Shown piece after piece: positions 29,199 to 43,505 of a DNA stretch of 64,000 nt. Made by a program: the position numbers and the translations under genes. The stretch comes from Bacilli bacterium. Lineage in GTDB: Bacteria; Bacillota_I; Bacilli_A; RF39; UBA660. The notes beneath the pieces are model-generated. The model worked only from the letters and a program-made list of their open reading frames with translations, was not told the DNA's origin and made no database searches. Within the stretch, counting starts at the first letter, position 1. Each line of letters starts with the position of its first letter. The stretch covers positions 77,027-141,026 of the forward strand of contig JAFUTO010000032.1 in the NCBI GenBank assembly GCA_017484205.1, written 5' to 3'.

Positions 29199-29891
29199 CT
29201 AATTTTGTTCTACCTCCATTTCATCTTTATTTTCCTCTATTACTGACTTGTTTTTAGAAAAATGATTTTTAAATTGCTCATATAGTCTATCCATGATTTT
29301 TTCTTGATCCATATCTGGATTAAACCAGTCAATTTCTTCAGTTTCCTTTTTCCAATTATTAAGGTCTATTCTATATCCATACTCTATTTTTGCCTTACCT
29401 TCATTATAAAATAATTCAATAGAATAAGCATAATTAGATAATCTTGCAACACTAGATGAACCTGCATATTCTTTATAACCTGGATAAGTATAATTTTCAC
29501 CTGCTACATAACCTTTCTCTCCAAGTAAATTAATATCAAAATCTTCTAAAATAAATTCATCTAAGTCTAATTGTTCTAATAAATTATCTCTTAATTCTAT
29601 ATATTTATTATAATATTTTAAATGTTCCCTATAATCTTTTTCAGGAACATTATATTTTTTTATAAAGTTTTCAGCTCGTACCTTCCAATATTCTTCTTTT
29701 TCTCCCATTACTAATAAATCTTTAATAGTCCACCCATTAGCATATATTTCATTATAATTTAACACATCTTTATAAAGTGATTCTAAATAACTTGGAATAT
29801 AGTCTTTTATATATTCCAACATAGATAAATCTCCATAATCATAGTTTTTCCTAAATTCTTTTAAATTTATTTCATATAATGGTTTTGTCAT
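29199..29891 (-). CDS. hypothetical ICE accessory protein, tail ...DEMEVEQN
   Basis: ORF track. No recognised domain. Confidence 0.55.
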   Translation of the reverse strand: MTKPLYEINLKEFRKNYDYGDLSMLEYIKDYIPSYLESLYKDVLNYNEIYANGWTIKDLLVMGEKEEYWKVRAENFIKKYNVPEKDYREHLKYYNKYIELRDNLLEQLDLDEFILEDFDINLLGEKGYVAGENYTYPGYKEYAGSSSVARLSNYAYSIELFYNEGKAKIEYGYRIDLNNWKKETEEIDWFNPDMDQEKIMDRLYEQFKNHFSKNKSVIEENKDEMEVEQN

Positions 29892-29894
29892 ATT

Positions 29895-29927
29895 TCTCTC
29901 CTTTTCTATTTTTCTATTTCTTCTTCT
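29895..29927 (-). repeat. 33-nt gene-junction repeat (copy 1): ...EEEIEK stop + AAAAGGAGAGA
   Basis: Plus strand TCTCTCCTTTTCTATTTTTCTATTTCTTCTTCT is identical to 38322-38354. Confidence 0.85.
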
Positions 29928-30520
29928 GGTTCTTTATTTATACTATTTACTTTTTCTACAAGAAAATCTATTTTATCTGATATGGTTTCATATTTATTAC
30001 CATAGCAAAATTCCATTTCTATATTTTCGTTGATTATAGCTTTAAAAGTATTATAAATATCATTCATATTAGTAACTTTAATTGAATGTATCTTAATATC
30101 AAATGATTCAAATAAACGCTTATAAAATTTTTCAAAATCTTTTTCTGTAAAATTTTCTAATGGCATAAGACTTTTAAAACTAACATTAAACTCTGAACCA
30201 ACATTTCTAATTTTTAAAAATCTATTGTTCCATAAATCCATCATTTTTTCTTTATCATACTCTTTAAATAAAAAAATAAAAGTTCCTGTATCTCTTGAAT
30301 TAACACAATTGGTATGATCAATAATTGTTTCGTACTTTCCTTCATCTTGCACTATAATTCTATTACCTGCTTTTAACTTATTTACAATATTCATATATTT
30401 AGGATTATGTAAATCCCTAGGAAAATACTCATATATTCGTAAATAGTGTATAATTGCTTCATTCAAATTATCCCATACATCTAAATTTTTATTTATAAAC
30501 ACATATATAAAATTATTCAT
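29906..30520 (-). CDS. hypothetical ICE accessory protein, acidic tail ...PEEEIEK
   Basis: ORF track; the 3-prime end plus downstream SD is the 33-nt repeat shared with 38322-38354. Confidence 0.55.
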   Translation of the reverse strand: MNNFIYVFINKNLDVWDNLNEAIIHYLRIYEYFPRDLHNPKYMNIVNKLKAGNRIIVQDEGKYETIIDHTNCVNSRDTGTFIFLFKEYDKEKMMDLWNNRFLKIRNVGSEFNVSFKSLMPLENFTEKDFEKFYKRLFESFDIKIHSIKVTNMNDIYNTFKAIINENIEMEFCYGNKYETISDKIDFLVEKVNSINKEPEEEIEK

Positions 30521-31254
30521 TTTTCTATTTCCTCCTCTATTTCATTTTCTATATTTTTTTCTAAATCTTCGCAGTAATTTTTTCTATTAATATTTACAAC
30601 AGGGATAAGATCTTTATCAGAAAATAATTTCATTAATGCCTCTACACCATTTTGCTGTTTATATAACATTTCCTCTCTATATAGTGGAAATACTTGATAA
30701 AAATTAATTCTACCTTTATCTGGTAATGTTAAATCCAAATACTCATAATCTTTATTCAAAGCATTAAGTAAAAGTGTACTAGATAACTTTGTATTACTTG
30801 CAAATGGTTTTGTAGCCTTTTCATCTTCTGAAAAAGAATGTCCAAATCCTATCCATGAATCTTCCATTATTGGTGTTCTAGCAATATTTTTTATTTGACT
30901 TATAACCCATCCATTCTCTTCTTTTTCAAAATCAAAATTCCAATCTGATGGTAAATACATAATTAATTCTGCTCTGTCCAATCCTTCGTCTTTAATAATA
31001 TCTGGAACATTCATTTTATAAGCACCTAATCCTCTAGTAACTAACTTATAAAAATTATTTTTTGAATCAGGTGGAATTATCAATATATCCAAATGAACAT
31101 CAGGTGAATATAGTTCATGATAAACCATATCAAACTCACCAATATTATCTTTTATATATTCTTCGTATAATTTTATATCACTAGCATTGTATACATATTT
31201 TGGTGGTTCTTGTAAACCTTTCAAATAATAATTCATTTTTTTAGTAAAACTCAA
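30517..31254 (-). CDS. SUFU-like (Imm-SUFU type) protein, acidic tail ...IEEEIEK
   Basis: YHELYSPDVHLDILIIPPDSKNNFYKLVTRGLGAYKMNVP...AELIMYLPSDWNF...WVISQIKNIARTPIMEDSWIGFGHSF resembles the bacterial Suppressor-of-fused family (h.D....p......lvT.GmS...m...EL...lp..W......W....l...a......w...GH). Confidence 0.45.
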   Translation of the reverse strand: MSFTKKMNYYLKGLQEPPKYVYNASDIKLYEEYIKDNIGEFDMVYHELYSPDVHLDILIIPPDSKNNFYKLVTRGLGAYKMNVPDIIKDEGLDRAELIMYLPSDWNFDFEKEENGWVISQIKNIARTPIMEDSWIGFGHSFSEDEKATKPFASNTKLSSTLLLNALNKDYEYLDLTLPDKGRINFYQVFPLYREEMLYKQQNGVEALMKLFSDKDLIPVVNINRKNYCEDLEKNIENEIEEEIEK

Positions 31255-31266: not shown

Positions 31267-32952
31267 TTATTTTCCTTTATAATATTCATTAACCTTTTTC
31301 TTTTCATCTTGAGAAATTTTTTCAATATCCTCACCATTAACTCTTTCTACTTCTTTATCATCTTTGTCATATAATACATATTCTTTATCATCTACTAAAT
31401 AAATAATTCCTCTGGTATCAAAACTAACCCAAGCAATACTCTTTTTAGGAACATAAAAAAAGTATTCACTATATGGAATACGGACACAATATGTATCTGA
31501 TGAAGAGCGTTTTTCATCAATCATATTTTTACTAATAGAAATACTTTTAATATATCCTTTTTCACTTTCTAAAGAAATACCCTTAATCTTTTCTAATTCA
31601 CTAGCTTTATTTTTTAAATAAGTAAGATAAGCATATTTTTGATTCATATCAATTCTCATCTTATTTGCTTCAGAAATAATTTCTTCTACTTCTTCTGGTA
31701 TTTCTACATTTAATTCTTTTTTCAAATCTAAAAATGTTTGAACTTCTTTTGGGAGTTCTGCATCTATTGGATATATTTCTTGTTGCTCTAAGTATCCATT
31801 ATAATCATCTAAATATTTTATATATAAATTACATAATGGAACTCTAAGTTGTAATGTTTCATGTTTTGATAATAAAGAGTTATATTCTGTTTCCCTTTGC
31901 TCTATATCTTTCTTTATTTCATTTAATTGATAATCTAAAGAATCGTAGTTATATATTTCATGACTATTTAAAAAGTTAATTGTATCTACTAACTGATGAT
32001 AACGCCTTACTTCTAAATAGCGAGAATTATAATATTTAAAATATTCAGAGTTAGCATCTAAATCTTGCATAGTATATAAAACTGAATGTTTTGATAAATT
32101 GGCTAGTTGATCATATATATTTAAAATATCACTATCACTAACATTTAATTTATAATCTTCAAAATTAATAACCTTTTGATTTTTTCTCTTTTCTCTGAAA
32201 AATAATTTTAATGCTTCTTCACTATAATCATCACCTAGAATTTTCATTGTTACATATCTTTCTTTTCCATAAGGCTTTATACGAATGTTTTTCCCTTGTT
32301 TAATTAAATATCCTTCTAAAGCAAGTTGCTCTAATAATTCATCAAAAGAATAACATCTATCTTTTAGTGTTTCTATCATTTCAATTATTTGACTTCGCCA
32401 AGATTTATTTGCAAGATTATATAAATATTTATTTTTATGATAATGACCAATCTTTGGAGCATCTTCAATTATATGAAGACCATGTTCTAATGCAATTTGA
32501 TCACTTACATCTCTTAATCCATACAATCCTTCAATTGGATTAGATAGTCTATCTTCTAGTTTTCTACCTTTCAGATTTACAGCTGAAATGCAGAAGTGAT
32601 TATGCAAATGTAAATGGTCTACATGAGTACAAACTACTACTTGAAAATCTGGATATAATTTTTTTGCAAGTTCTATTCCCATTTGATGCACTTCTTCAGG
32701 AGTTAAGTTTTTTTCTTTTGGATCAAATGATTGATAAGCATGATAACATGTTCTACTATCATCATTTTCTTCAATACGAAATTTTTGACTATTTATCTGC
32801 ATCTCATAAGCTGCGAATTCAGAAGAACAATTTATTCCTGTTACTAATGTTCCATCTTTCGTTTTATCTGGATTCTTAATATAGTTAATACAATCAACTC
32901 TTCCTTTTACTCCATGTACTGACCATCTAGCTGTTGCTGGAATAAATATCAC
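31267..32952 (-). CDS. relaxase/mobilisation nuclease (MobA/VirD2 Relaxase-family)
   Basis: ATARWSVHGVKGRVDCINYIKNPDKT N-terminus and the His triad CTHVDHLHLHNHFCISAVN. Start placed at an in-frame GTG (32950-32952). The track ATG at 33015 would give an 89-nt overlap with the MobC-like gene and a non-homologous extension. Confidence 0.75.
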   Translation of the reverse strand: MIFIPATARWSVHGVKGRVDCINYIKNPDKTKDGTLVTGINCSSEFAAYEMQINSQKFRIEENDDSRTCYHAYQSFDPKEKNLTPEEVHQMGIELAKKLYPDFQVVVCTHVDHLHLHNHFCISAVNLKGRKLEDRLSNPIEGLYGLRDVSDQIALEHGLHIIEDAPKIGHYHKNKYLYNLANKSWRSQIIEMIETLKDRCYSFDELLEQLALEGYLIKQGKNIRIKPYGKERYVTMKILGDDYSEEALKLFFREKRKNQKVINFEDYKLNVSDSDILNIYDQLANLSKHSVLYTMQDLDANSEYFKYYNSRYLEVRRYHQLVDTINFLNSHEIYNYDSLDYQLNEIKKDIEQRETEYNSLLSKHETLQLRVPLCNLYIKYLDDYNGYLEQQEIYPIDAELPKEVQTFLDLKKELNVEIPEEVEEIISEANKMRIDMNQKYAYLTYLKNKASELEKIKGISLESEKGYIKSISISKNMIDEKRSSSDTYCVRIPYSEYFFYVPKKSIAWVSFDTRGIIYLVDDKEYVLYDKDDKEVERVNGEDIEKISQDEKKKVNEYYKGK

Positions 32953-33727
32953 CTTCCGTTTCCAATTGCTGACTATATAAATTATATATATAATCTGCTT
33001 CCATCTCTTCTGCATATTTTGATGCTGATTCTTTATCTACAAAAGGCATCACAATACCATATCTTAACTTATCATTGAAACGATAAATAGAAATATATAA
33101 TTCCTTCTTCATAGCAATTTGACGATAGTTGTCAATTTTCTCTTTAAACTTATCTGGATTGAAATTTTTAATTTCAATTTCATCATAGTATTCTGGTAAA
33201 AAAACAATATATATAACAGCTTCATTTGGATGATATAAATTAGAAGGTCTTAATACCAATCCCCATTCACCAGCAATTTGTATTTTAGGTATCAATTTAT
33301 CTGAATCATATTTTTCTATCATATTAATTCTTTGTTGAATTTTCTTTTCTGAATTAACAGACAAGGAAGAAATTACAATTCTTGATAATCTACCTATCTT
33401 TTCTATAATTTGTTGATTCTGAATTTTTATTTTATCAACATCTTCTTTTGTTAGAAAAACATTTTTTATTAATTTTCTTTGAACATTTAATAGTTCTCTT
33501 AACTCTTTTATATATTCACTAACCTTATTACAAACTTTTTCTTTTCCATGAACATCTTCAACATAAATGTTTTCATATATACATGCTGCTCTTATATATT
33601 CGGCTAAGCAATCTCCAAATCCATATTTAATAGCTTTTTCTTTTATTATTTTTCGTTCTTCTTCATTAAGCATCACATTTATCTTTTGTCTTCTTAATTT
33701 ACTATATTTTTCGTCTTGATTGCTCAT
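32927..33727 (-). CDS. MobC/RHH-like relaxosome accessory protein
   Basis: RRQKINVMLNEEERKIIKEKAIKYGFGDCLAEYIRAACI fits the MobC pattern (r...v.v.lt.eE...i..kA...g.s.seYiR); immediately upstream of the relaxase. Confidence 0.5.
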   Translation of the reverse strand: MSNQDEKYSKLRRQKINVMLNEEERKIIKEKAIKYGFGDCLAEYIRAACIYENIYVEDVHGKEKVCNKVSEYIKELRELLNVQRKLIKNVFLTKEDVDKIKIQNQQIIEKIGRLSRIVISSLSVNSEKKIQQRINMIEKYDSDKLIPKIQIAGEWGLVLRPSNLYHPNEAVIYIVFLPEYYDEIEIKNFNPDKFKEKIDNYRQIAMKKELYISIYRFNDKLRYGIVMPFVDKESASKYAEEMEADYIYNLYSQQLETEGDIYSSNS

Positions 33728-34420: not shown

Positions 34421-34789
34421 TTAATAATATTTTTCATTTTCATCTATTTCTAATGATGAAAAATAATCCAAACTATTATAAAAAACTGCTTCAGAAATTT
34501 CACCTGAAGTAGCTTTTTCTAAATCATTTTTTGTTAAATTTCCTCTTGTATAATGATCAGTTAGATAATGAGAAATTGAATAAGGATTTATATTTTCATT
34601 CTCAACTTTTGATGTAATTTTATAAATAAATTTTGCATCTTCTTCATCAATATCAGGAAAACAATCATATATTCCTTTAAAAATATAATAAGATTTTAAA
34701 TTCTCTTTATGAGTTTCTGGCATAGTTTTATATATTGAAAATATATCCAAATTAATCAACCTCTCTTTCATCAATATCTTCAATTTCAA
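34421..34789 (-). CDS. hypothetical ICE accessory protein (paralog of 34752..35093)
   Basis: ORF track; shares the pattern I.K.S.V.....P.SI...L....Y with the upstream ORF; tail ...EIDENEKYY. Confidence 0.5.
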   Translation of the reverse strand: MKLKILMKERLINLDIFSIYKTMPETHKENLKSYYIFKGIYDCFPDIDEEDAKFIYKITSKVENENINPYSISHYLTDHYTRGNLTKNDLEKATSGEISEAVFYNSLDYFSSLEIDENEKYY

Positions 34790-35093
34790 GAGGGTTTCCT
34801 AATTCTTTTCCATTGTTATACCAATCATAGAAATCATCTACTGATAATGATTTTATTTGGTCAATTGTTATATTTTTTTCTTCATAAACTTCATTTGCAA
34901 GTGATTGTCCTATTGATATTGGATCTGTATAATCTCCATGAACTTCTGAACACTTTTTTATCAATAATTCTAACTCTTCTTTTGGAATATCATTTTTAAC
35001 ATTTGTCAAACCAATATAAAAGCAATAATCATAAATATTATAATCATCAAATGATGCTGAATATTCTTTTATTTTTTCAAAAGATTCTATCAT
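34752..35093 (-). CDS. hypothetical ICE accessory protein, acidic tail ...EIEDIDEREVD
   Basis: ORF track; ATGA-type overlap with ArdC. Confidence 0.5.
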   Translation of the reverse strand: MIESFEKIKEYSASFDDYNIYDYCFYIGLTNVKNDIPKEELELLIKKCSEVHGDYTDPISIGQSLANEVYEEKNITIDQIKSLSVDDFYDWYNNGKELGNPLEIEDIDEREVD

Positions 35094-36037
35094 ATATCCA
35101 TCTCCATTTCTTGTTCTATTTCGTTTATTTGAACTTTTTCTTTTTTAATACTATTTTCTTCTAAATAATCTACAATTTTGTTAGCATCTGTTATTGCATT
35201 AAACAATTCTTGTGGATTATTTTTTAATATTTCTAACCAATTCTTTACATAACTTTTATGATTATCTAAATGCCTTTTATCCTCTTCCAAATGAAACTTT
35301 TGCATTAAAAAAGAAGAACTAATTTCTGCTCTTAATTCTTCTTTGGCATAGCCTTCAGTTCCAAAATGGTCTTTCATATTTCTTGATAATCTTGATTCAT
35401 GTCCTGTTGAATGAGCTAATTCGTGAAGTTGTGTAGCATAATAAGAATTACTTGTTTTAAAAGTATTTGATGGTGGCAAAACAACTATATCTTTTGAAGG
35501 ACTATAATAAGCATTTTCTCCTTCTTCTTTATATCCAACGCCTATATTATCAATTATATTTTGAATATAATCATTACTAATAATTTCTTGTTTTTGTTCT
35601 GTTTTATCATTAACCAATCCATCAACTAAATCTCCATTGAATACTGTATAACTCATTTTACTTATTTTAAATTCTTTTTCTTTTTCAGGATTTTCTTCAA
35701 TAATTTTATTATATTCTTCAAAACTTATAATCTTATTATCTTTTTTATTTTTCATTGCCCACCATTCAACTGGTACACCTTTACCTTTTGCTGAACCAAT
35801 AAATTTCCAATGCTTTTTTCCCATTTGATTAAATGTAATCCATCTATTATCTTTATATCCTCTTTTATAAGCAATGTATGATAAATATAAATTATTTACA
35901 CCTCTATATTTTATTCCAGAAATAGCATTTTCAGGAATAGAAGTCTTCCACATTTGCTCCCATGGAATGTTTCCTTCCTCTAAACTTTTTATATACATAT
36001 CAATTAAATCTTGTCTAGTTTTTGGAAGTTTACTCAT
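35090..36037 (-). CDS. ardC: ArdC-like antirestriction protein (ssDNA-binding N-domain + zincin metalloprotease)
   Basis: N-terminal IPWEQMW...YRGVNNLYL...RWITFNQ (DUF1738/ArdC-N) and C-terminal HELAHSTGHESRLSR (HExxH). Tail ...EIEQEMEMDI. Confidence 0.8.
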   Translation of the reverse strand: MSKLPKTRQDLIDMYIKSLEEGNIPWEQMWKTSIPENAISGIKYRGVNNLYLSYIAYKRGYKDNRWITFNQMGKKHWKFIGSAKGKGVPVEWWAMKNKKDNKIISFEEYNKIIEENPEKEKEFKISKMSYTVFNGDLVDGLVNDKTEQKQEIISNDYIQNIIDNIGVGYKEEGENAYYSPSKDIVVLPPSNTFKTSNSYYATQLHELAHSTGHESRLSRNMKDHFGTEGYAKEELRAEISSSFLMQKFHLEEDKRHLDNHKSYVKNWLEILKNNPQELFNAITDANKIVDYLEENSIKKEKVQINEIEQEMEMDI

Positions 36038-36974
36038 ATTCTATTTCATCCATTTCTTGTTCTTGAGCTATCTCTTTATCTGTCATTTCATAAAATATAG
36101 GAATTGTAATTTCGTTAAATAAATCTTTATATACATACTTATTTTCATTAACTATAAATATATCTGACTCACTATCTTTTAATATTTCTCTAATATCTAT
36201 CATTCTTCTTATATCTCTTGATAACCTAGAAATATTAACAGAATATAGATCTAAAGTTTTATTATTTTTTATATCCTCTAATGCTTTTCCAAATGCTTTT
36301 TCATGATTTTTTAATCCTGAACATCTATCAAAATATATTCTTATTAATTCAGTATTTCCTTTAGCATTTTGATTAATAGAATACAAACATTTATCAATTT
36401 GGTTTTTTATAGCAATCATAGATTCACCTTGAACATTATCTACACGACAATAAATTGAATATAATTTATTATCTTTATTTTGTTCCCAAATCATATCTAA
36501 AACTTCATCTACTGCTTCCTTTAAAGAATCTGAATCCATTACATCATCATATTCTATTTCACCATCTTTATTATAAAAAGACAATTCAAACCAGTTATTA
36601 TTATCAATATCTAGTTCATATAATTCGTGTTTTTCGTTTAATATATCTAATAATTCATTATCATCTTTGATATATAATGACATCTCATCTTTAAATGCTC
36701 CAACTTCATTTTTATCTTTAACATGAGCAATTAAATTTCCTGCTTTTATTTGTTCACCATCAGGCGTTATATAATCTTTTTTTGCAATTAAATCACAAGA
36801 TACTATTCCTCTAGCAACAATTTTATATTCACCTTCTGAAGACTTTATACTTGCTACTTCTCCACCATACCAGAAAACATTATCATGATTTGGTTCTTCA
36901 TTTTCTTGAATTTTTATATCAACATTTAATCTTGTATATCCGTTTGGTGATATTTTTCCACGAACTAAATTCAT
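36030..36974 (-). CDS. two-domain protein: unknown N-domain + resolvase-like catalytic domain with Ser-to-Asp substitution, no DNA-binding domain
   Basis: YSIYCRVDNVQGES...RIYFDRCSGLKNHEKAFGKALEDIKNNKTLDLYSVNISRLSRDIRRMIDIREILKDSESDIFIVNEN aligns with gamma-delta-type resolvase (YaRVSt.qQ...ifsDk.SG....Rp.l..ll......D.lvv..lDRLgRd......i...l...gv.f). The nucleophile position reads D. Tail ...EQEMDEIEYE. Confidence 0.5.
   Translation of the reverse strand: MNLVRGKISPNGYTRLNVDIKIQENEEPNHDNVFWYGGEVASIKSSEGEYKIVARGIVSCDLIAKKDYITPDGEQIKAGNLIAHVKDKNEVGAFKDEMSLYIKDDNELLDILNEKHELYELDIDNNNWFELSFYNKDGEIEYDDVMDSDSLKEAVDEVLDMIWEQNKDNKLYSIYCRVDNVQGESMIAIKNQIDKCLYSINQNAKGNTELIRIYFDRCSGLKNHEKAFGKALEDIKNNKTLDLYSVNISRLSRDIRRMIDIREILKDSESDIFIVNENKYVYKDLFNEITIPIFYEMTDKEIAQEQEMDEIEYE
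36034..36064 (-). repeat. 31-nt gene-junction repeat (copy 1) spanning ...EQEMDEIEY and the ATG of ardC
   Basis: Plus strand TCATATTCTATTTCATCCATTTCTTGTTCTT is identical to 58713-58743. Confidence 0.85.
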
Positions 36975-37189
36975 TATTTATCTCCTAATATTTTAGTATC
37001 AAGATCTTGTTGCATTTGATAGATTTTTTCTTGTTGTTTTTTATAATCATATAATACTTTTAACTGTTTATCATAATCGGATATTACAACATTAATAGCA
37101 TCTATTTTATCTAGTTCCTTCTTCTTTAGTGCTTCTAACTTATCAATTTTTTTCTCTAATGGTTTATTCAAAATTAATTCTCCTTTCAT
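36974..37189 (-). CDS. hypothetical coiled-coil protein (71 aa)
   Basis: ORF track; overlaps neighbours at both ends (translational coupling). Confidence 0.45.
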   Translation of the reverse strand: MKGELILNKPLEKKIDKLEALKKKELDKIDAINVVISDYDKQLKVLYDYKKQQEKIYQMQQDLDTKILGDK

Positions 37190-37743
37190 ATTTCTAATTC
37201 ATATTCTTCATCAATATTATTTAATTCAAAAGATTTATCTGTTTCTTTATAACAATTATCAAGAATCCATTTAAAATTTTTTGAAATATTTTCATCTTCT
37301 CTAAGTAATAATCCTTGCCATATTCCTTTAATATGATTTATTCCATTTAAAAACTTTATTCCTGTTCCTCCTGCCTCTTTCCAATCAAGAAGATTCTTTG
37401 TATGGTCATCAATTAAATAATCAAATGAAGTAATTTTACTAGGTAAATATTTATATTTAATATCACCATAAGGAACAAAAATTCTCTTTTCAATTGGTAA
37501 CTCTGGAAGATATTTATTTAACCAATTATTTTTTTCTTTTAAAGCATAATCACTATCACTTAAAAAAGAAGAAAGAATATAAATATCCTTTCCTTCTCTA
37601 ATAAGTTTTTTAGTTTCTTCTAATATATAATTGTTTGGTTTTAATGATTCATAATAACCTTTTTGATATAATTCATTATTTGATTGAATATTTTTCCATT
37701 CGGCAAGAGTACCGTCCATATCAATGAAAATTCTTGTTTTCAT
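37186..37743 (-). CDS. HAD-superfamily 5-prime(3-prime)-deoxyribonucleotidase-like phosphatase
   Basis: IFIDMDGTLAEW (DxDG.L motif I), ILSS (motif II), IDDHTKNL (motif III/IV region); size and pattern as NT5C-type dNMP nucleotidases. Tail ...DEEYELEI. Confidence 0.6.
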   Translation of the reverse strand: MKTRIFIDMDGTLAEWKNIQSNNELYQKGYYESLKPNNYILEETKKLIREGKDIYILSSFLSDSDYALKEKNNWLNKYLPELPIEKRIFVPYGDIKYKYLPSKITSFDYLIDDHTKNLLDWKEAGGTGIKFLNGINHIKGIWQGLLLREDENISKNFKWILDNCYKETDKSFELNNIDEEYELEI

Positions 37744-37745
37744 GA

Positions 37746-37949
37746 TTATTTATCTAATTCAACTTCATCTTTTAATGGAACTTTTTCATAATCAATATAG
37801 CTCTCAATATAACTTTCAATAGAGTTTTTTAAATCTCCAATTGTTTCGCATTTATATTTAGTACCTGATGAAGACGGAGTGCCAATATAAACAGTTTTTT
37901 CTTCTTTAGAAAATACTATTTCAAGTTCAATATCATCTTTTATAATCAT
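37746..37949 (-). CDS. hypothetical ICE accessory protein (67 aa), tail ...DEVELDK
   Basis: ORF track; ATGA overlap with ssb. Confidence 0.45.
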   Translation of the reverse strand: MIIKDDIELEIVFSKEEKTVYIGTPSSSGTKYKCETIGDLKNSIESYIESYIDYEKVPLKDEVELDK

Positions 37950-38317
37950 TTATCAATTTCCTCCTCTACTTCATCATTTAAAATAGTTTTATCTTGATTT
38001 TTGCTGTGAGATAGATAATCAATATTATCAACAACAATATCAGTATATTTAGTTTTTTGACCATCTTTTTCTACTAATCTAGTTTGTATTGATGCTTCTA
38101 TAAGAACTAAATCACCTTTTAATAAATGGTCTGATTTTTTTACTGCTCTTTCATTCCATGCTGTTAAATCTATAAAGTTTGCTTCGTGTTCACCATTTTC
38201 ATTTGTGTATGGTTTTGGTACAGCAATAGTAATACTAGCATAATTTTTTCCTGCTTCAGTTTGTTTTAATTCTGGTTTTGATACCATTCTTCCTACAAGT
38301 AATGTTTGATTTAACAT
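37946..38317 (-). CDS. ssb: single-stranded DNA-binding protein with non-canonical acidic tip
   Basis: MLNQTLLVGRMVSKPELKQTEAGKNYASITIAV...FIDLTAWNERA......KGDLVLIEASIQTR is an SSB OB fold. The C-terminus is ...DEVEEEIDK instead of the usual D-D-D-(I/L)-P-F. Confidence 0.85.
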   Translation of the reverse strand: MLNQTLLVGRMVSKPELKQTEAGKNYASITIAVPKPYTNENGEHEANFIDLTAWNERAVKKSDHLLKGDLVLIEASIQTRLVEKDGQKTKYTDIVVDNIDYLSHSKNQDKTILNDEVEEEIDK

Positions 38318-38321
38318 ATAA

Positions 38322-38354
38322 TCTCTCCTTTTCTATTTTTCTATTTCTTCTTCT
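38322..38354 (-). repeat. 33-nt gene-junction repeat (copy 2)
   Basis: Identical to 29895-29927 by direct comparison. Confidence 0.85.
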
Positions 38355-38713
38355 AATTCTACTTCGTTTTTCTTCTCAAATTTCATACTTAATAACCTAC
38401 TATTGGTATAAAAAGATTCCAAATCTTTAACATTTAATGGTTCTACTCCAAACCAGTTTTTAGATGATTCTTTAGTATATCCAAATGTTAATCCCTTTGT
38501 TATTTGAAATTCAAAAACAAGATAATTTGGATTCTTATTATTAATTCTTGCCAGATGCTGCCAATCTGAAAAATTTCTATAATCTTTAAGAAGTTTTCCA
38601 ATTCCTAAATCGTCTAAAAATTTTCGGAATTTATTAAACTCTTCTTCATTTGATACCATTATAGAATTAATTCCAGCGATAAAGTCTAGCCATTTATTCT
38701 CTTCGTTTATCAA
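38333..38713 (-). CDS. hypothetical ICE accessory protein, acidic tail ...LEEEIEK
   Basis: ORF track (TTG start after AGGAGA); the palindrome operator variant lies just upstream. Confidence 0.5.
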   Translation of the reverse strand: MINEENKWLDFIAGINSIMVSNEEEFNKFRKFLDDLGIGKLLKDYRNFSDWQHLARINNKNPNYLVFEFQITKGLTFGYTKESSKNWFGVEPLNVKDLESFYTNSRLLSMKFEKKNEVELEEEIEK

Positions 38714-38763: not shown

Positions 38764-39804
38764 TTATATCTCTATTTCTAAATCTTCTTCTACTTCTTTA
38801 TCTTTAGATGATGATAAATCATAATGATAAAGTTCATTCTTACCATAAGTAATGGAAGTTATATTTGAAAAGTTAAATTCTTCTGTCCATCTGCTTGTTT
38901 CTTCCTGAGAATTTTCTTTAATAAATTTTGATACTTCTTCATAAGCTTTACCATATCCACTACTGCCTTTACTATCATTAGTTAAATCTCTTTTTAATGC
39001 ACTATATTCATATTTAAATGTTAAACTTTTATCTCCATATTGAATTGTTATATTAACTGTTTTTGCATCAATATCTTTAATAGAATTATATATATTTCTT
39101 TTTATATATAAATCTTTAAATTCATTATTTTTATTTTCTTTTATAATATCTAAATATTCAATCTTATCACGGAATATTAGCAATTCAAGTCCTAATTCCT
39201 CTTTATTATTTCTATAATCATCTATTGTTTCTATAATTTTATTAGAATACTTTTCAACAGTCTTTTGAGGATTATTTAAATATTCAACATCTATATAATG
39301 TCCCTTATATTCTGGAATGTTTGTGAATTCATAACTTGAATATGACTTTTGAAGTTTTATTATTGGATTCATTTCTTCAACAAATTGTTCTCTTACATCT
39401 CTCTTATAACTATCTATCCTATAATCTTCTAAATGATTATATTTTTCAATAGCTATATCTTTTAATTTTTCTTCATTGGCGAATGAATATTTCTCTATAT
39501 AATCTTGTATTTCATTCCACAATTTTTCACCCAAAACACCAAAAGAACTTTTTTCAATTAAGTTCTTTTCTTTAGGTAATAATTCATTTAAATAATAAGT
39601 GCAATTATATAATACTCTATCTTTTGTATCCAAATATCCTGCTACTTCATAATCATTTTGTGATAAATAACTATTATTTGTTTTAGTATATATAACAACA
39701 AATCTATCATCAAATTTCTCTTTATGAATTTTTTGATGATTATAAGTACCTTCAAAAACTAAATCATTAACATCAGGATTTAAAAGAAATTTTTCTATAT
39801 CCAT
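38764..39804 (-). CDS. hypothetical ICE accessory protein, paralog A, tail ...EVEEDLEIEI
   Basis: ORF track; colinear similarity with 39826..40842, including the identical DAKTVNITIQYGDKSLTFKYE. Confidence 0.55.
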   Translation of the reverse strand: MDIEKFLLNPDVNDLVFEGTYNHQKIHKEKFDDRFVVIYTKTNNSYLSQNDYEVAGYLDTKDRVLYNCTYYLNELLPKEKNLIEKSSFGVLGEKLWNEIQDYIEKYSFANEEKLKDIAIEKYNHLEDYRIDSYKRDVREQFVEEMNPIIKLQKSYSSYEFTNIPEYKGHYIDVEYLNNPQKTVEKYSNKIIETIDDYRNNKEELGLELLIFRDKIEYLDIIKENKNNEFKDLYIKRNIYNSIKDIDAKTVNITIQYGDKSLTFKYEYSALKRDLTNDSKGSSGYGKAYEEVSKFIKENSQEETSRWTEEFNFSNITSITYGKNELYHYDLSSSKDKEVEEDLEIEI

Positions 39805-39825
39805 ATTGTATAATCACCCCTTTAA

Positions 39826-40842
39826 TTACATTTCTATTTCTAAATCTTCTTCTACTTCTTTTTCTGGAGTTGGAACATCTTTACTATATATTTCATTCTT
39901 TCCACTTGTTATAGAACTAATCGTAGGAATAGAAAAAGGACATTTCCATTGGTTTTTATCAGCAAGATTAGGATTATTTGCTTTTACAAAATCTGATACT
40001 ATTCCATAACTACTTGTATAACTTGAAGTTTCCATTTTACCACTTGATAATGCACTTCTTAAATCATCAAGTTCATATTTAAATGTTAAACTTTTATCTC
40101 CATATTGAATTGTTATATTAACTGTTTTTGCATCAACATATTTAATTGAATCAAGTATTTTTTTGCAAGAATGAATATCATCAAAAGCATTATCTTTATT
40201 CTCTTGTAATTCTTTTAAATAGCTTACCTTATCGTGGTAAATTAATAATTCTAATCCATAACTTTTTCCGTTTCTTTCAATAAATCTTTTAGATATTTCT
40301 TCTATTGCTTTTTTTGGATTATTTAAATATGAAATAATATTATTATCATAATCAATGTCATAATTGCTGATTGAGATTGTTAAATCTGCTGTTGGATTAT
40401 CCTTAGTGATAAAAAGTTTATTAATTTCTTTTTTATATTCAAATAATCTTGTATCATCCTTTGTATCATATTTTTCCTGAGCTAATTTAGTTAAATCTTT
40501 TTCATGAGCAAAACAATAATCATTTATATATTGCTTTACTTCATCTAAGATTTTTTGATTTAAATTATCAAATCTATCAAACTTTATAACATCACTTTCT
40601 TGAATTTTATCAGTTAAAAATTTTTCTGCATTATATATACAATGTGCCTTATTATCATAATATCCACATAAATTATAATAACTACGATTTTGCCTTAAAG
40701 TGTCTTGATTTTCTTTAATATATAAAAGATCAAACCTATCATCATAGTGTTCTTTATGAAGTTTGTATTCTTTTTGTTGATAATCAAATACTTCATCATT
40801 TGCTTTTACATCTAATAAAAAATTTTCTATTTTACTATACAT
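39826..40842 (-). CDS. hypothetical ICE accessory protein, paralog B, tail ...EVEEDLEIEM
   Basis: ORF track; tandem duplicate of 38764..39804. Confidence 0.55.
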   Translation of the reverse strand: MYSKIENFLLDVKANDEVFDYQQKEYKLHKEHYDDRFDLLYIKENQDTLRQNRSYYNLCGYYDNKAHCIYNAEKFLTDKIQESDVIKFDRFDNLNQKILDEVKQYINDYCFAHEKDLTKLAQEKYDTKDDTRLFEYKKEINKLFITKDNPTADLTISISNYDIDYDNNIISYLNNPKKAIEEISKRFIERNGKSYGLELLIYHDKVSYLKELQENKDNAFDDIHSCKKILDSIKYVDAKTVNITIQYGDKSLTFKYELDDLRSALSSGKMETSSYTSSYGIVSDFVKANNPNLADKNQWKCPFSIPTISSITSGKNEIYSKDVPTPEKEVEEDLEIEM

Positions 40843-40862
40843 ATAATTCTCCTTTCATAGTA

Positions 40863-41444
40863 TTAATAATCCATTTCCATATCATCATTTTCCATTTCAT
40901 AATCATCATTATTATTTGAATTAAGTTGTTGCTCAGTATCTTGTTTTATACGATTTAATTCAATAGATTCTTGATTTTCAAGAAAATTAGATATTTCCAT
41001 TGCTTCTGCTTGAATGTTAGGATCTGTTATCGCTCTATGGTATTCATTAGATATTTCTTGATTAAAGAAATGGAATTCTTTCTTTTCAGTTCTTTGTTTA
41101 TCTTGAATATAATCATAAGTATGATTTATCGCAATTTGTTCTGATAATCTTAAATCTTTTGGATTTAAATTGTTATCAATACATATTAACGCTTGATAGA
41201 AAAGTTGCTCATTATCTTTCTTTAAAGCGTTTAATTGACCATACATGATTGTTAAAAATTGTCTGTTGACTGATTGACTAATTGCTCTTTCTACTTCTTG
41301 TCCAAATTCTTTTTCAAAATGAGATGCAGGTACTTTGGTAGGTTGATGCGTTTCTGGATTTGTATATTTAAAAACTATATCTTCAAGTGTTTTTGACATT
41401 TCTTTTGGTTTTTGTTGAATAAAATCATCATAAAATTTTCTCAT
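40863..41444 (-). CDS. hypothetical ICE accessory protein, tail ...ENDDMEMDY
   Basis: ORF track. No recognised domain. Confidence 0.5.
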   Translation of the reverse strand: MRKFYDDFIQQKPKEMSKTLEDIVFKYTNPETHQPTKVPASHFEKEFGQEVERAISQSVNRQFLTIMYGQLNALKKDNEQLFYQALICIDNNLNPKDLRLSEQIAINHTYDYIQDKQRTEKKEFHFFNQEISNEYHRAITDPNIQAEAMEISNFLENQESIELNRIKQDTEQQLNSNNNDDYEMENDDMEMDY

Positions 41445-41465
41445 AAATTCTTTTCTCCTTTTCTA

Positions 41466-41804
41466 TTAAATATTTATTTCTATATCACTAACTTCTTTAT
41501 TACTAACTGACTTACTTTCTATTTGATGCTGTAAATTTTTATAATCTTCCATTTCAATTAGTTCTAATAAATTTTGTGCTTTTTCACCAGATAAACGAGT
41601 ATATGGTGCATTGAACAAAAATCTATCTTGAACCATTTTTATAATTTCATCTATTGATTCTTTAGAAGATATTTCTCCATCTAGTTCTAATACTCCACCA
41701 TCCATGTTATGACCTTTAGAATTATAAATTGTATAATCACATTTATCTCCATCATTAAATATATGAAGAATATTATTCTCATTACTAATTATTAAAGTAT
41801 CCAT
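41466..41804 (-). CDS. hypothetical ICE accessory protein, tail ...EVSDIEINI
   Basis: ORF track. No recognised domain. Confidence 0.5.
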   Translation of the reverse strand: MDTLIISNENNILHIFNDGDKCDYTIYNSKGHNMDGGVLELDGEISSKESIDEIIKMVQDRFLFNAPYTRLSGEKAQNLLELIEMEDYKNLQHQIESKSVSNKEVSDIEINI

Positions 41805-42181
41805 TATTCATCTCCACCAGATACCAAAGTTATAATTATTTCTAAAGGTTCACACAATGGACATGAATCACAATCTTCATTATCATCTTCAGCAATATCA
41901 TCATCTAATAATGATTCCATTTCTGTTATATTATCTTCATTATCTATTTGATTTGATGGAAGATAACCAGCTAAAACAAGTAAATGAATGAAGTCTATTT
42001 TTAAAACTTCACACATTCTAATTAATGTAACTAAATTATAATTTTCTCTTTCACCATGTTCAATTCTTGATACTTCTGTATCACTAATTCCAACAATGGC
42101 TGCTAATTTTCTTTTACTATAACCTAACATTACTCTTCTTTTTCTAAATACTTCAGCAATAAAACCATAATTATTTTTCAT
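41804..42181 (-). CDS. XRE-family transcriptional regulator with acidic, Cys-containing C-terminal extension
   Basis: GYSKRKLAAIVGISDTEVSRIEHGERENYNLVTLIRMCEVLKIDFIHLL is a Cro/C1-type HTH. Start moved to MKNNYGF (42181); the track N-terminus MSTIVDK is created by the upstream palindrome. Confidence 0.7.
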   Translation of the reverse strand: MKNNYGFIAEVFRKRRVMLGYSKRKLAAIVGISDTEVSRIEHGERENYNLVTLIRMCEVLKIDFIHLLVLAGYLPSNQIDNEDNITEMESLLDDDIAEDDNEDCDSCPLCEPLEIIITLVSGGDE

Positions 42182-42201
42182 AAATATTCTATCCTTTCTT
42201 T

Positions 42202-42219
42202 TGTCTACAATAGTAGACA
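42202..42219. promoter_or_regulatory. palindromic operator-like site TGTCTAC-AATA-GTAGACA (copy 1)
   Basis: Perfect 7-4-7 inverted repeat ~20 nt upstream of the XRE regulator start. A 23-nt block including it is identical to the one at 50032-50049. Confidence 0.45.
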
Positions 42220-42235
42220 TTTTAATCAAAAAAAA

Positions 42236-42262
42236 TTATTTTTCTATTTCTTCTTCTAAATC
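42236..42262 (-). repeat. 27-nt gene-end repeat (copy 2)
   Basis: Identical to 28883-28909. Confidence 0.85.
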
Positions 42263-42451
42263 CTGTTCAATAGTAGTTTTATTAAATAATCTATCTTCTG
42301 AAACATCTATATCAAAATCATATTGCATATTTGAAGTAATATAAGAAATCATCATATCTTCCAAATCTTCAGGGCTTTGAATATCCATTCCTGCTTCTAA
42401 AAATGTTTCTTTGTTTTCTTCAAATAATTCTTTTATATACTCTTTATTCAT
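42236..42451 (-). CDS. hypothetical ICE accessory protein (71 aa), acidic tail ...LEEEIEK
   Basis: ORF track; the 3-prime end is the 27-nt repeat shared with 28883-28909. Confidence 0.5.
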   Translation of the reverse strand: MNKEYIKELFEENKETFLEAGMDIQSPEDLEDMMISYITSNMQYDFDIDVSEDRLFNKTTIEQDLEEEIEK

Positions 42452-42752: not shown

Positions 42753-43505
42753 TTAATTTGTTTCTAATTTCATTCCTAAATAGATACCATTTTCATCCTG
42801 TATAGGACTACACATTCCAGTTCTATTTGTTTTCTTTAATTCTGAAGCACAAGCATCTGCTACATTCATCATTGTATATCCATCAGAGAATAGAAAATAC
42901 TTTACAATTTTACCTGAATTATTATCGTTTTTAGATGGTTCTTGAACTGGTTGAGTTTGTTTAGGTTCTTCTTTTGGTGTTGTATTAGTTGTATTATTTT
43001 TTTGATTTGATTCTACTTTAGGTGGAGTTTGTCTATTTTCAGTAGAATTATTTTCAGGTATATTTTCTTGATTTTCTGGTTCTTCTTTTTCTTTTACAAT
43101 AACTTTTAATATTGCTTGACTTGTATTTCCAGATTTATCATTAACACTATATACAATAGATTGTTCACCAACTATTGATGTATCAATCTCTTCGTATTTT
43201 AATTCATCTATTAAATTACCATCAACTTTATCTATAACACTTTCTACATAATCAATGTAGTTTATATCATCCCCTTTCGTTAATTCTAATTCTTCTATTT
43301 TTAATTTAATAATTGGAGCTTCTTCATCTTTTACTATTACTTCTTCTTTTGGCTTTTCTTCTAATTCAGTAGATGAAGTATTATTAAAATGAAAATATAA
43401 AATTAAACCTGCGATCAATATAAAAAAGAGAACGATAATTGATATAATAATCATTCTCTTTCTCTTATATTCATGATATTTAATCAATAATTCTTCATCA
43501 CTCAT
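42753..43505 (-). CDS. membrane-anchored protein with Ig-like (DUF5011-like) extracellular domain
   Basis: N-terminal TM. The domain EAPIIKLKIEELELTKGDDINYIDYVESVIDKVDGNLIDELKYEEIDTSIVGEQSIVYSVNDKSGNTSQAILKVIVKEK is paralogous to the one in 43529..43951. Confidence 0.5.
   Translation of the reverse strand: MSDEELLIKYHEYKRKRMIIISIIVLFFILIAGLILYFHFNNTSSTELEEKPKEEVIVKDEEAPIIKLKIEELELTKGDDINYIDYVESVIDKVDGNLIDELKYEEIDTSIVGEQSIVYSVNDKSGNTSQAILKVIVKEKEEPENQENIPENNSTENRQTPPKVESNQKNNTTNTTPKEEPKQTQPVQEPSKNDNNSGKIVKYFLFSDGYTMMNVADACASELKKTNRTGMCSPIQDENGIYLGMKLETN

Follow-up and report, generated by a model that had tools for sequence, protein, structure and literature searches.

Current work on the first minutes of conjugative elements in a new host puts its emphasis on early expression of leading-region genes. 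Vergunst and colleagues reportedly described, in 2000, Arg-rich C-terminal signals of VirB/VirD4 substrates. Acidic protein ends are familiar from the ...DDDIPF tip of SSB and the tail of phage T7 gp2.5, which are disordered, carry a hydrophobic end and dock on partner proteins, and translational coupling by overlap of stop and start codons is an established phenomenon. Substrates of the Legionella Dot/Icm system (type IVB) carry E-blocks, C-terminal signals rich in Glu that have a hydrophobic residue close by, as described in PMC3096851, and the available part of PMC5802825 reports that DotM, a component of the coupling complex, binds the Glu-rich signal. Conjugation systems of the F-like, IncN and IncP types pass on proteins, SSB and PsiB among them, by means of C-terminal or internal signals, as set out in PMC11288057 and PMC8406263. 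For Firmicute-type type IV secretion, the available part of a 2025 review (PMC12857230) calls the experimental evidence on substrate recognition 'limited'.

A 31-nt repeat at two gene junctions

Here, we analysed a window of 64,000 nt (the whole stretch of DNA under study), which from approximately 24.4 kb to at least 64 kb is an integrative conjugative element of an uncultured gut Bacilli bacterium. An earlier note had described in it a 31-nt repeat, at 36034-36064 and 58713-58743, that encodes the tail EQEMDEIEY of two different proteins together with the ATGs of an ArdC and a methyltransferase gene, the sites lying 22 kb apart. All of this was confirmed: a search of the window returned two exact copies (n=2), both on the minus strand and 22,679 nt apart, in the following setting.

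36034..36064, minus strand: 31-mer copy A, the last 9-10 codons (EQEMDEIEY-E) of a 314-aa resolvase-like protein and the ATG of the ArdC-like gene
58713..58743, minus strand: 31-mer copy B, codons EQEMDEIEY-D of a 132-aa protein and the ATG of the methylase gene
36030..36974, minus strand: 314-aa protein, Pfam Resolvase at residues 174-297 (serine-recombinase-like catalytic domain), tail ...EQEMDEIEYE
35090..36037, minus strand: ArdC-like protein, ArdcN and MPTase-PolyVal domains, own tail ...NEIEQEMEMDI
58706..59104, minus strand: 132-aa protein of no known family, tail ...KEQEMDEIEYDR
57688..58716, minus strand: orphan DNA methylase, Pfam N6_N4_Mtase, tail ...VELDDCELER

No third copy was found in the window at up to 3 mismatches, nor a further one elsewhere in the 1.27-Mb genome, and 100 dinucleotide shuffles gave no match (0/100). 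At site A the 314-aa frame ends in ...AQEQEMDEIEYE and its stop (36032-36030) lies 3' of the ATG of the ArdC-like gene (36037-36035), an overlap of 8 nt; at site B, where the 132-aa protein ends the upstream frame, the ATG of the N6/N4 methylase gene (58716-58714) precedes the upstream stop (58708-58706) in the same way, with an overlap of 11 nt. Sequence identity between the sites ends at both edges of the 31-mer, where the peptides diverge, and the tail is the sole real match between the two upstream proteins (9/11 identities, BLASTP). The 31-mer is thus the DNA of a tail on two unrelated proteins with the same sub-variant, EQEMDEIEY, and its copies are the two most alike members of a family of acidic C-terminal tails. 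The earlier idea that it marks anti-restriction genes is not supported, since the sequence belongs to the upstream proteins and the element has more than 20 similar tails.

Other elements were searched for the 31-mer, as had been proposed. Among 79 genome-contig loci the exact 31-mer occurs only in one (L011), whose ArdC is 100% identical and which is probably the window's own genome, and metagenome contigs gave no exact match; a degenerate pattern that preserves the peptide had 8 matches, all 8 at these two junction types. Compared with PLSDB plasmids by megablast, the part of the window from 34000 to 46000 had no match. Orthologs of the 132-aa protein (81-82% identity) end in KEQEMDEVEYDR, and there too the methylase gene follows.

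The family of the 314-aa protein has Asp or Ala at the position of the nucleophilic Ser. The ArdC-like protein was recognised by Pfam (ArdcN, 1.5e-18; MPTase-PolyVal, 8.8e-39), and H205, E206 and H209 of its HExxH motif are invariant. Its homology with R388 ArdC (PDB 6SNA; E 1e-30) covers residues 9-299 and stops there, and in its AlphaFold model pLDDT falls below 50 at residues 300-315, against a mean of 86; as modelled, the ArdC tail is a disordered extension of 16 residues (300-315) outside the fold.

An acidic C-terminal tail on unrelated proteins of the element

The tail consists of the last 6-10 residues, in which Asp/Glu alternate with Ile/Leu/Val/Met/Tyr up to the extreme C-terminus, and it closes with a hydrophobic residue, Lys/Arg, or Tyr-Glu/Asp/Ala (examples are EEEIEK, EVEEDLEIEI, EMEMDI and DLDLELER). 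With crude ORF calls (longest frame, first start codon), the motif was found on 21 of the 43 element ORFs (49%) and on 29 of the 1265 ORFs elsewhere in the 1.27-Mb genome (2.3%), an odds ratio of 40.7 (Fisher p 9e-21). A stricter rule gave 25 matches among 1271 ORFs, 16 of the 25 inside the element. About half of the element's soluble, non-machinery proteins share one kind of terminal peptide. The tailed genes other than those at the two junctions, with some of their neighbours, are as follows.

28107..31254, minus strand: six consecutive soluble genes downstream of the relaxase, all tailed, namely
28107-28397, minus strand: tail EEIEK
28394-28870, minus strand: tail NEIER
28883-29179, minus strand: tail EEEIEK
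29199-29891, minus strand: tail EMEVEQN
29906-30520, minus strand: tail EEEIEK
30517-31254, minus strand: SUFU-like, tail EEEIEK
34421-34789, minus strand: small protein (region 34421..35093), tail ...LEIDENEKYY
34752-35093, minus strand: small protein (same region), tail ...EIEDIDEREVD
37186-37743, minus strand: NT5C-like nucleotidase (region 37186..38713), tail EEYELEI
37746-37949, minus strand: 67-aa protein, tail DEVELDK
37946-38317, minus strand: SSB, tail DEVEEEIDK
38333-38713, minus strand: 126-aa protein, tail ELEEEIEK
38764-39804 and 39826-40842, minus strand: paralogs of no known function (region 38764..42451), tail EVEEDLEIEI/M
40863-41444, minus strand: protein of no known function, tail DDMEMDY
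41466-41804, minus strand: LPD16-like protein, weak tail DIEINI
41804-42229, minus strand: HTH regulator between tailed genes, without tail
42236-42451, minus strand: protein of no known function, tail DLEEEIEK
56261-57139, minus strand: protein of no known function (region 56261..57610), tail ...YDLDLELER
57161-57610, minus strand: protein of no known function, tail ...EVEEDIDLEK

Small size and strong acidity (pI 4.1-4.7) are common among the tailed proteins, and no membrane segments were predicted in any of them. Proteins without a Pfam name were searched against NCBIfam and PHROGs, and no family was found. A sortase or T7SS-type signal was rejected, the tailed proteins being without LPXTG, membrane or secretion features.

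We then compared related loci, which are kin, so that the counts are not independent. Of the 120 best ArdC homologs (54-89% identity), 115 have the tail. At loci whose ArdC is at least 52% identical it occurs on 279/684 ORFs, and at loci with ArdC at 46% or less, low-GC ones included, on 16/595. Across 29 related loci, 51 families have at least 3 members; the tail is on 80% or more of the members in 26 of these families and on 20% or less in another 20. Tailed families include ArdC (30/30), SSB (12/12), the methylase (7/7), SUFU-like proteins (10/10), the nucleotidase (8/8) and many of no known function, untailed ones the relaxase and the NikA-like protein (0/24 each), VirB4 and sortase (0/14 each); regulators, all membrane proteins and type IV secretion parts are without it at these loci. 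In the 26 tailed families the acid fraction is 0.51-0.66 at positions -8 to -4 and the hydrophobic fraction 0.56 at -3 and 0.47 at -1, the enrichment of both being restricted to the last 8-10 residues. The last-8 peptides are diverse (134 distinct among 238 members of 22 families), with D/E and I/L/V/M/Y swapping freely while the acid/hydrophobic pattern is retained; the SSB of the element ends DEVEEEIDK, those of relatives DEVEEEMDI or DVEPEMGMA. It is the peptide of the tail that is conserved, and not its DNA. The tail is flexible and extends beyond the folded domain; it is restricted to this element lineage and fixed per protein family.

Such a distribution bears on the explanation that the tails are functionless, a compositional accident of a 26% GC genome with a Glu/Lys/Ile-rich proteome. 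The low GC content (25.9%) and the commonest codons (GAA, ATA/ATT and AAA) agree with it, but it is refuted by the within-genome control (2.3% of ORFs outside against 49% inside the element). Low-GC loci of other element lineages (L057, L067, L081 and L086) that are without the tail also speak against it, as does an all-or-none distribution among families that is conserved over 29 loci. We consider it extremely improbable.

In comparisons with more distant elements, presence of the tail is tied to the lineage of the transfer system and not to the cargo. In a genome of the same family, ArdC is 50% identical and has a basic C-terminus, the strict tail is on 0/52 ORFs of the surrounding contig stretch, identity of the coupling protein is no more than 35%, and upstream of its gene lies an ORF without homology to the 401-aa protein encoded next to the coupling protein here. 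Distant ArdC-domain proteins are mostly without the tail (30/34), and many proteobacterial ones end Arg/Lys-rich, like classical VirB/D4 signals. Five Bacilli elements with coupling proteins 33-39% identical showed, by eye, no shared tails, so the tag is not universal; related element lineages have apparent variants of their own (DDFEM, hydrophobic-x-hydrophobic ends, RDMSM).

Translational starts and possible recombination at the junctions

At both 31-mer junctions the downstream ATG is made of the Tyr codon TAT and the G of the next codon. The stop/start overlaps make translational coupling, which had been proposed for both sites, plausible there, while as an account of the tails in general it falls short, 192 of the 314 tails having no overlapping start. 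Overlap with a downstream start is more frequent in tailed genes (122/314) than in untailed ones (60/408), so a translational constraint contributes to at least part of the pattern. Among tails with Tyr in the last three residues, 68/117 contain an ATG with which an ORF of 60 codons or more begins. For the sub-class ending Glu-Tyr-Glu/Asp/Ala it is thus partly established that the Tyr codon and the next G form the start of the next gene, tag and coupled start sharing bases, and the two 31-mer sites are alike right up to the ATG because the same bases code for both. An origin of the tails by polyprotein formation or read-through was rejected, the genes being in different frames, separated by stops and often preceded by spacers with their own ribosome-binding sites.

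The same figures could be read at the RNA level, the shared bases being kept as the ribosome-binding region and coupled start of the downstream gene and the acidic residues being a by-product of purine-rich GAA/GAG/GGA codons. Apart from the overlaps of 8 and 11 nt and their excess in tailed and above all in Tyr-containing ends, ATG-GAG (Met-Glu) and GAG-GAA codons do form GGAG/GAGGA cores 7-9 nt before embedded starts. However, the only Shine-Dalgarno-like element of the 31-mer itself is GGATGA, approximately 8-9 nt upstream of the start and weaker than the GGAGG at other element genes. Several tails (28883, 29906 and 38333) precede a separate Shine-Dalgarno sequence, GGAGG, after the stop, those at 38764 and 42236 end operons, and the majority have no overlapping start at all, whereas the untailed NikA-like, relaxase and VirB4 families are also closely coupled to the next gene. 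The host has the same translational needs, yet bears the motif on only 29/1265 ORFs outside the element, and the residue class is conserved with variable codons, as selection on the protein predicts. Thus, we regard the RNA-level explanation as distinctly unlikely.

Recombination would offer another explanation: one tail would have been copied onto the other by gene conversion, and tail-coding ends would be short homology patches that shuffle modules between elements. In its favour, there are three differences from the junctions of relatives (AAG to AAA and GTA to ATA at site B, GAG to GAA at site A), and each of them brings the two window copies into agreement. Tail-coding DNA also forms repeat families (D5, D7, D8 and D9), unrelated genes being 72-89% identical there over 36-52 nt. 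The three changes, however, are all towards preferred codons, and identity stops exactly where the peptides diverge. Moreover, both junctions are found with the same peptide and different nucleotides in two relatives (G062 and G063) and in one metagenome contig that has both sites, 21.5 kb apart; the similarity of the junctions is therefore old, and a common origin of the two cassettes, as the earlier note had it, is not supported, the longest shared run in relatives being 17 nt. With the codon bias of the element, identical coding of the shared 9-residue peptide is expected about 1 in 10 times (P ~0.10), so gene conversion is possible but not needed; the 3' ends of other unrelated gene pairs of the element have 27, 23, 23, 22, 21, 21 and 20 nt exactly in common. 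As it accounts at most for the perfection of the match, and not for the existence of the tails, we hold it to be doubtful. More generally, where two junctions have an exact repeat, a peptide tag in common and a strong bias in codon use may lie behind it, and not a site of regulation or the scar of a recombination.

Transfer machinery, possible readers of the tail and known systems

The machinery of the element comprises the following genes.

24399..26246, minus strand: large serine recombinase, CcrC/XisF-like, likely the integrase, at the left end of the element
31267..33015, minus strand: MobA/VirD2-type relaxase, without tail (0/24 family members)
42753..50050, minus strand: type IV secretion genes, none tailed (two Ig-like surface proteins, CHAP hydrolase, VirB4, PrgI-like, VirB6-like, TrbC-like)
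50069..52027, minus strand: VirD4-type coupling protein, NCBIfam CD1115 family, without tail, candidate reader of the tag
52002..53207, minus strand: 401-aa conserved protein without a known family; its gene overlaps that of the coupling protein; second candidate reader or adaptor

Pfam and NCBIfam named VirD4 (CD1115 family), VirB4, PrgI, VirB6-like and CHAP families, and the element is not of the Dot/Icm type IVB kind, which has a DotL-DotM-DotN coupling complex; a Pfam scan of 44 element ORFs, together with NCBIfam, named no DotM, DotL or IcmSW family. The 401-aa protein has a mediocre AlphaFold model (pLDDT 60.7), which had no match below E 0.03 in a Foldseek search of the PDB; its assignment as DUF3801, a weak Atlas lead (score 0.81), was dropped, Pfam at E up to 10 having given no confirmation. 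A complex prediction for residues 95-652 of the coupling protein with residues 266-315 of ArdC, run without controls, scored 0.00 (mark 0.32) and weighs neither way. The relaxase and the primase of the element, the two classical protein substrates of conjugation, are both without the tail, which speaks against a role of the tail in docking for transfer.

We nevertheless propose, tentatively and at a little under an even chance, a docking-tag reading, in which the secretion system of the element would take up the tailed proteins for transfer. The tag would have a single common reader, most likely where the type IV secretion system receives its substrates (the VirD4-type coupling protein or a partner of this protein). 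ArdC, SSB, the methylase and about 20 further establishment or anti-defence proteins would then reach the recipient in protein form, along with the DNA. With somewhat more reserve still, the alternating acid-hydrophobic tail could be regarded as a sequence-defined translocation signal of a Gram-positive-type conjugation machine. Known conjugative type IVA signals, as summarised in the available part of PMC11288057, are mostly basic or hydrophobic, not acidic, which argues against such a tag. For R388 ArdC, PMC7213743 reports that expression in the recipient was needed and that supply from the donor gave no rescue; export is therefore not required in that system.

A tag of this kind might instead be read by a partner outside secretion: a protease or adaptor that keeps establishment proteins short-lived, a hub that uses it as a handle like the SSB tip, or, as an acidic mimic of ssDNA folding back, the DNA-binding surfaces themselves. 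The SSB of the element bears the tail where an acidic Pro-Phe tip is usual, several tailed proteins bind DNA judging by their domain families (ArdC, SSB and the methylase), and the untailed relaxase and primase are necessarily exported in other systems. Many of the tailed proteins, however, are so small and acidic (pI 4.1-4.7) that DNA binding is unlikely for them, known bacterial C-terminal degrons are non-polar rather than acidic, and the tail goes with the transfer-system lineage, not with the cargo family. We consider a non-secretion reader unlikely.

If the docking-tag reading is right, some 20 finished proteins of the element enter the recipient along with its DNA and ahead of any gene expression there: ArdC, the orphan methylase, SSB, the nucleotidase, SUFU-like proteins and many unknowns. 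A tag shared by ArdC, the methylase, SSB and approximately 20 other soluble proteins would suggest protein delivery as a second route of establishment. It would be the first rule by which substrates of a Firmicute-type type IV secretion system could be told from their sequence, and it would make establishment or anti-defence a likely function of more than a dozen unknown families. It could reveal the transferred protein set of uncultured elements from sequence alone.

Among the known systems, translational coupling by overlapping stop and start codons resembles the two junctions in that the downstream ATG lies inside the last upstream codons (8 and 11 nt). It needs few bases, however, and leaves unexplained a class-conserved tail of 6-10 residues on 26 families, mostly without an overlapping start. 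The Arg-rich signals reported for VirB/VirD4 are likewise C-terminal, unstructured and charge-based, with the coupling protein as reader (as it would be here), but the charge of the element tail is opposite. SSB-type acidic tips share with it a disordered acidic tail and a hydrophobic end, and the element's own SSB bears the element tail, not the canonical ...(I/L)PF, having no Pro-Phe end; those tips have one carrier and many readers, whereas here there are many carriers, which implies one reader. R388 ArdC (PDB 6SNA/6I89; PMC7213743) is a clear homolog with ArdC-N and metalloprotease domains, as in the element, but the protein described there finishes at the end of the fold, whereas the element's ArdC has 16 further disordered residues with the tail.

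In type IVA protein transfer (the pED208/F 'conjutome', pKM101 and RP4; PMC8406263 and PMC11288057) establishment proteins like SSB and PsiB also enter the recipient with the DNA, and the signals can be C-terminal; as these sources describe them, they are positively charged or hydrophobic C-termini or internal motifs of no common sequence, whereas the element has one acidic motif on approximately 26 families. The Legionella E-block, in the available part of PMC3096851, has 3-6 acidic residues in the last ~25 with a hydrophobic residue near the extreme C-terminus, on many unrelated proteins of one system and outside folded domains. The element tails resemble it in lying within the last ~25-30 residues, in having 3-6 Asp/Glu in 6-10 residues with a hydrophobic residue near the end, and in marking many unrelated proteins of one system (26 families) while being rare elsewhere in the genome (21/43 vs 29/1265). 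They differ in standing at the very end and in alternating strictly with hydrophobic residues. The machine differs as well, being a Firmicute-type conjugative one (VirD4 of the CD1115 family, VirB4, PrgI and CHAP hydrolase), and its targets would be recipient bacteria, not eukaryotic cells.

The two junctions and the tails of the element

The 31-nt repeat occurs exactly twice in the window, on the minus strand at 36034-36064 (site A) and 58713-58743 (site B). No third copy with up to 3 mismatches was found in the window (0 of 100 shuffles gave a match), and no further copy in the whole genome (1.27 Mb). The earlier note had correctly described it as the end of two different upstream proteins together with a downstream ATG. 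At site A it forms the 3' end of ORF 36030-36974(-) (314 aa, ...AQEQEMDEIEYE*) and includes the ATG that starts the ArdC-like gene 35090-36037(-), and at site B it forms the 3' end of ORF 58706-59104(-) (132 aa, ...KEQEMDEIEYDR*) and includes the start codon (ATG) of the methylase gene 57688-58716(-). Identity between the sites breaks off at either edge of the repeat, and no likeness between the 314-aa and 132-aa proteins was found beyond this tail. The surrounding integrative conjugative element is of the Firmicute type, with every gene on the minus strand, and it resides in the genome (26% GC) of an uncultured gut Bacilli bacterium.

Genes of the element with Pfam/NCBIfam assignments
24399-26246, minus: large serine recombinase, the element's likely integrase (reads YCRVST at the catalytic motif)
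27370-28104, minus: sortase
31267-33015, minus: MobA/VirD2 relaxase
32927-33727, minus: NikA-like protein
35090-36037, minus: ArdC
37946-38317, minus: SSB
43948-45846, minus: CHAP hydrolase
45849-48266, minus: VirB4
48217-50050, minus: PrgI-, VirB6- and TrbC-like proteins
50069-52027, minus: VirD4-type coupling protein (CD1115 family)
53209-56124, minus: DnaG-type primase
57688-58716, minus: methylase
59482-63938, minus: two surface adhesins, the second with an LPXTG anchor

We listed the C-terminal residues of every minus-strand ORF of the window. Between about 28.1 kb and 59.1 kb, one kind of terminal peptide recurs on more than 20 unrelated proteins (for example EEEIEK, NEIER, EVEEEIDK, EVEEDLEIEI, DDMEMDY, EEYELEI and DLDLELER), ArdC itself ending in EIEQEMEMDI and the methylase in ELDDCELER. 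Thus, the junction is not, as had been supposed, specific to anti-restriction genes. The tail-coding gene ends appear in a repeat search as DNA repeat families D5, D7, D8 and D9, and other unrelated gene pairs have 27, 23, 23, 22, 21, 21 and 20 exact nucleotides in common at their 3' ends; the 31-nt match stands at the upper end of this continuum.

Tails were counted on crude ORF calls, for which we took the longest frame from its first start codon and discarded overlapping ORFs. Under a strict rule, the last 10 residues had to include 5 or more Asp/Glu and 2 or more hydrophobic residues; 25 of 1271 genome ORFs pass it, 16 of the 25 being in the element. By a motif rule (Asp/Glu-hydrophobic-Asp/Glu within the last 7 residues, with 3 or more acids among the last 8), 21 of 43 ORFs are tailed inside the element versus 29 of 1265 in the rest of the genome (Fisher p 9e-21, odds ratio 40.7). 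The tails are a feature of the element, not of the genome. None of the tailed proteins of the window has a predicted membrane segment, and proteins with such segments are all untailed.

A further repeat family, D10, is a sequence of about 43 nt in three copies (38721-38763, 42192-42234 and 50022-50064; 79-100% identity) containing the palindrome GTCTAC-AATA-GTAGAC. The copies lie directly 5' of the ribosome-binding sites of three genes that each lead an operon (a 126-aa gene, an HTH regulator and a TrbC-like gene), and probably serve the element as a common operator or RNA hairpin. Two adjoining small genes at 13686-14085 with a common prepilin-type N-terminus in DNA (87% over 54 nt, D16) lie in a type IV pilus or competence-like gene cluster of the chromosome, beyond the element.

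Pfam assigns a serine-recombinase catalytic domain (Resolvase, 5e-10) to the 314-aa protein encoded 5' of ArdC. In its family (window and loci L012-L039) the position of the nucleophilic Ser, which we take to lie in the motif Y-x-R-V-S, is Ala, Asp or Gly (YCRVDN, YCRVAN, YCRSAL and others). Since the protein also has no DNA-binding domain, it is probably an inactive derivative.

Conservation of the tails and the level of selection

Among the best 120 ArdC homologs (54-89% identity), 115 are tailed and 5 untailed. When one genome was scanned for each species, 79 loci were obtained. Those with ArdC of at least 52% identity (L011-L040) are from uncultured Bacilli/'Tenericutes' MAGs with GC of 0.24-0.26; motif-rule tails are found in 279 of 684 ORFs of L012-L040, and in 16 of 595 at loci with ArdC of 46% identity or less, low-GC loci among them. 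We clustered 728 ORFs of the window and L012-L040 into 51 families with at least 3 members, excluding L011, whose ArdC is 100% identical and which is probably the same genome as the window. Tails end at least 80% of members in 26 families and at most 20% in 20, and 5 families are mixed. Tailed families include ArdC (30/30), the 346-aa (25/25) and 193-aa (23/23) proteins, SSB (12/12), and the resolvase-like (11/11), SUFU-like (10/10), nucleotidase (8/8) and methylase (7/7) families. The relaxase (0/24), NikA-like protein (0/24), VirB4 (0/14) and sortase (0/14) are untailed, the CHAP hydrolase (0-1/20) and HTH regulator (0-1/26) nearly so. The 346-aa protein, of a family of unknown kind, is one of two tandem paralogs (38764-39804 and 39826-40842, minus strand; 346 and 338 aa) with 220 nt at 74% identity (D2); all 25 members from related loci end in EVEEDLEIE(I/M).

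Several results point to selection on the tail peptide. The 238 members of 22 motif families have 134 different last-8 peptides, and within tails Asp and Glu, as well as Ile/Leu/Val/Met/Tyr, swap freely. Positions -8 to -4 are Asp/Glu in 51-66%, position -3 is hydrophobic in 56%, and position -1 is hydrophobic in 47% or Lys/Arg in 31%. Homology of ArdC to the solved R388 ArdC stops at residue 299, and residues 300-315 are predicted to be unstructured (pLDDT <50 in an AlphaFold model of mean pLDDT 86.4). Tails also stand at operon ends (38764 and 42236), and at 28883, 29906 and 38333 a separate GGAGG comes after the stop codon. In only 122 of 314 tailed genes do the last 14 nt contain an ATG that begins an open frame of 60 codons or more. 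Such overlap is nevertheless commoner than among untailed genes (60 of 408) and highest with Tyr in the last three residues (68 of 117), because TAT and a following G give ATG. Both 31-mer junctions are of this Tyr-codon type, and ArdC homologs ending in EMEMEYA* have the same design, with GGAG cores from ATG-GAG codons. The proposed coupled translation therefore holds for the sub-class with Tyr near the end, both junctions included, and fails as an account of all tails; a mainly RNA-level role of the tails seems quite improbable.

Origin of the exact identity

A search of other elements for the 31-mer and what follows it, as suggested in the earlier note, gave in place of the exact sequence the same two junction types with differing bases. 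Orthologs of the site-B protein in two genomes (G062 and G063; 81-82% identity) end in KEQEMDEVEYDR, followed by a methylase, and those of the site-A protein end in (P/Q)EMDEIEY(E/D), followed by ArdC. A degenerate peptide-coding pattern had 8 metagenome matches, of which 6 are junctions of the first type and 2 of the second. Both sites occur on one contig, 21.5 kb apart, with differing bases and a longest common run of 17 nt. As relatives keep both junctions with the same peptide, the two tails already resembled each other in the elements' ancestor. Short-tract gene conversion may have contributed to the exact identity, which we consider somewhat unlikely: it is not needed, since a shared 9-mer would be coded identically under the element's codon bias with a probability of about 0.10, and the three changes from the orthologs that make the window copies identical are all towards preferred codons. 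Such a contribution would be compatible with a secretion tag, another reader or an RNA-level role alike.

Transfer-system lineage and the proposed reader of the tag

A same-family genome has an ArdC of 50% identity with a basic C-terminus; around it, 0 of 52 ORFs have a strict tail and 2 of 52 a loose one. Its coupling protein is only 35% identical, and the ORF upstream of its coupling-protein gene shows no homology to the 401-aa protein whose gene overlaps the coupling-protein gene here. In relatives with tails, the coupling proteins are 75-90% identical and the 401-aa gene adjoins. At distant loci 30 of 34 ArdC-domain ORFs are untailed, and many proteobacterial ones have Arg/Lys-rich ends, like those of classical VirB/D4 substrates. 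It seems that the tag tracks the transfer-system lineage, not the cargo family. Judged by eye, three proteins of L040 end in (E/D)DDFEM, several of L044 and L050 have hydrophobic-x-hydrophobic ends (e.g., EDEFEMSL, NLEDNFEL, KPSMELAL) and two of L076 (Oligella) end in RDMSM, which look like tag variants of other element lineages. The distant ArdC-domain proteins of Clostridia loci L058-L071 have a basic tail (...KGKVGINSKR), beside a 2600-aa protein ending in ...GGNGKR, and those of Proteobacteria loci L072-L089 end in RPRRAAKIG, RSRRAARIG or KKRRSRSM; these may be lineage-specific C-terminal signals of opposite charge.

The 401-aa protein (52002-53207, minus strand) is of no known family, and its gene overlaps the coupling-protein start, as in 5 of 5 relatives examined. 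At E<=1e-5 the protein has 542 homologs, and its own C-terminus is weakly acidic (EEPEIAR, EEELEVAR, EEQEIDR); a model and structure search did not identify its fold. In five relatives the coupling protein starts 5 codons further downstream (MLVKR..., 647 aa) than the ORF as listed, and this later start is probably the true one.

What the 31-mer reflects is a lineage-specific tag at the protein level, which about half of the soluble proteins of the element carry at the C-terminus and which is partly dual-coded with the start of the next gene. One exposed tag on many unrelated soluble proteins of one element suggests one reader, which would recognize ArdC, SSB and the methylase among others. 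The tail may well be a secretion tag of the transfer system, a reading that we hold tentatively. However, the relaxase and primase have no tail, and R388 ArdC is active when produced in the recipient, without rescue by donor supply (PMC7213743). A different reader of the same exposed peptide, acting in turnover, as a hub or through DNA mimicry, is unlikely. Full-text search and the consulted portions of a 2025 review (PMC12857230) gave no Gram-positive conjugation system with an acidic tag at the C-terminus, which is no proof of absence. There are published precedents: SSB, PsiB and other proteins are transferred by F-like, IncN and IncP systems, the signals being C-terminal or internal (PMC11288057, PMC8406263). 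Dot/Icm substrates carry Glu-rich E-blocks with a nearby hydrophobic residue (PMC3096851), and DotM is said to recruit effectors to the Dot/Icm coupling complex (PMC5802825).
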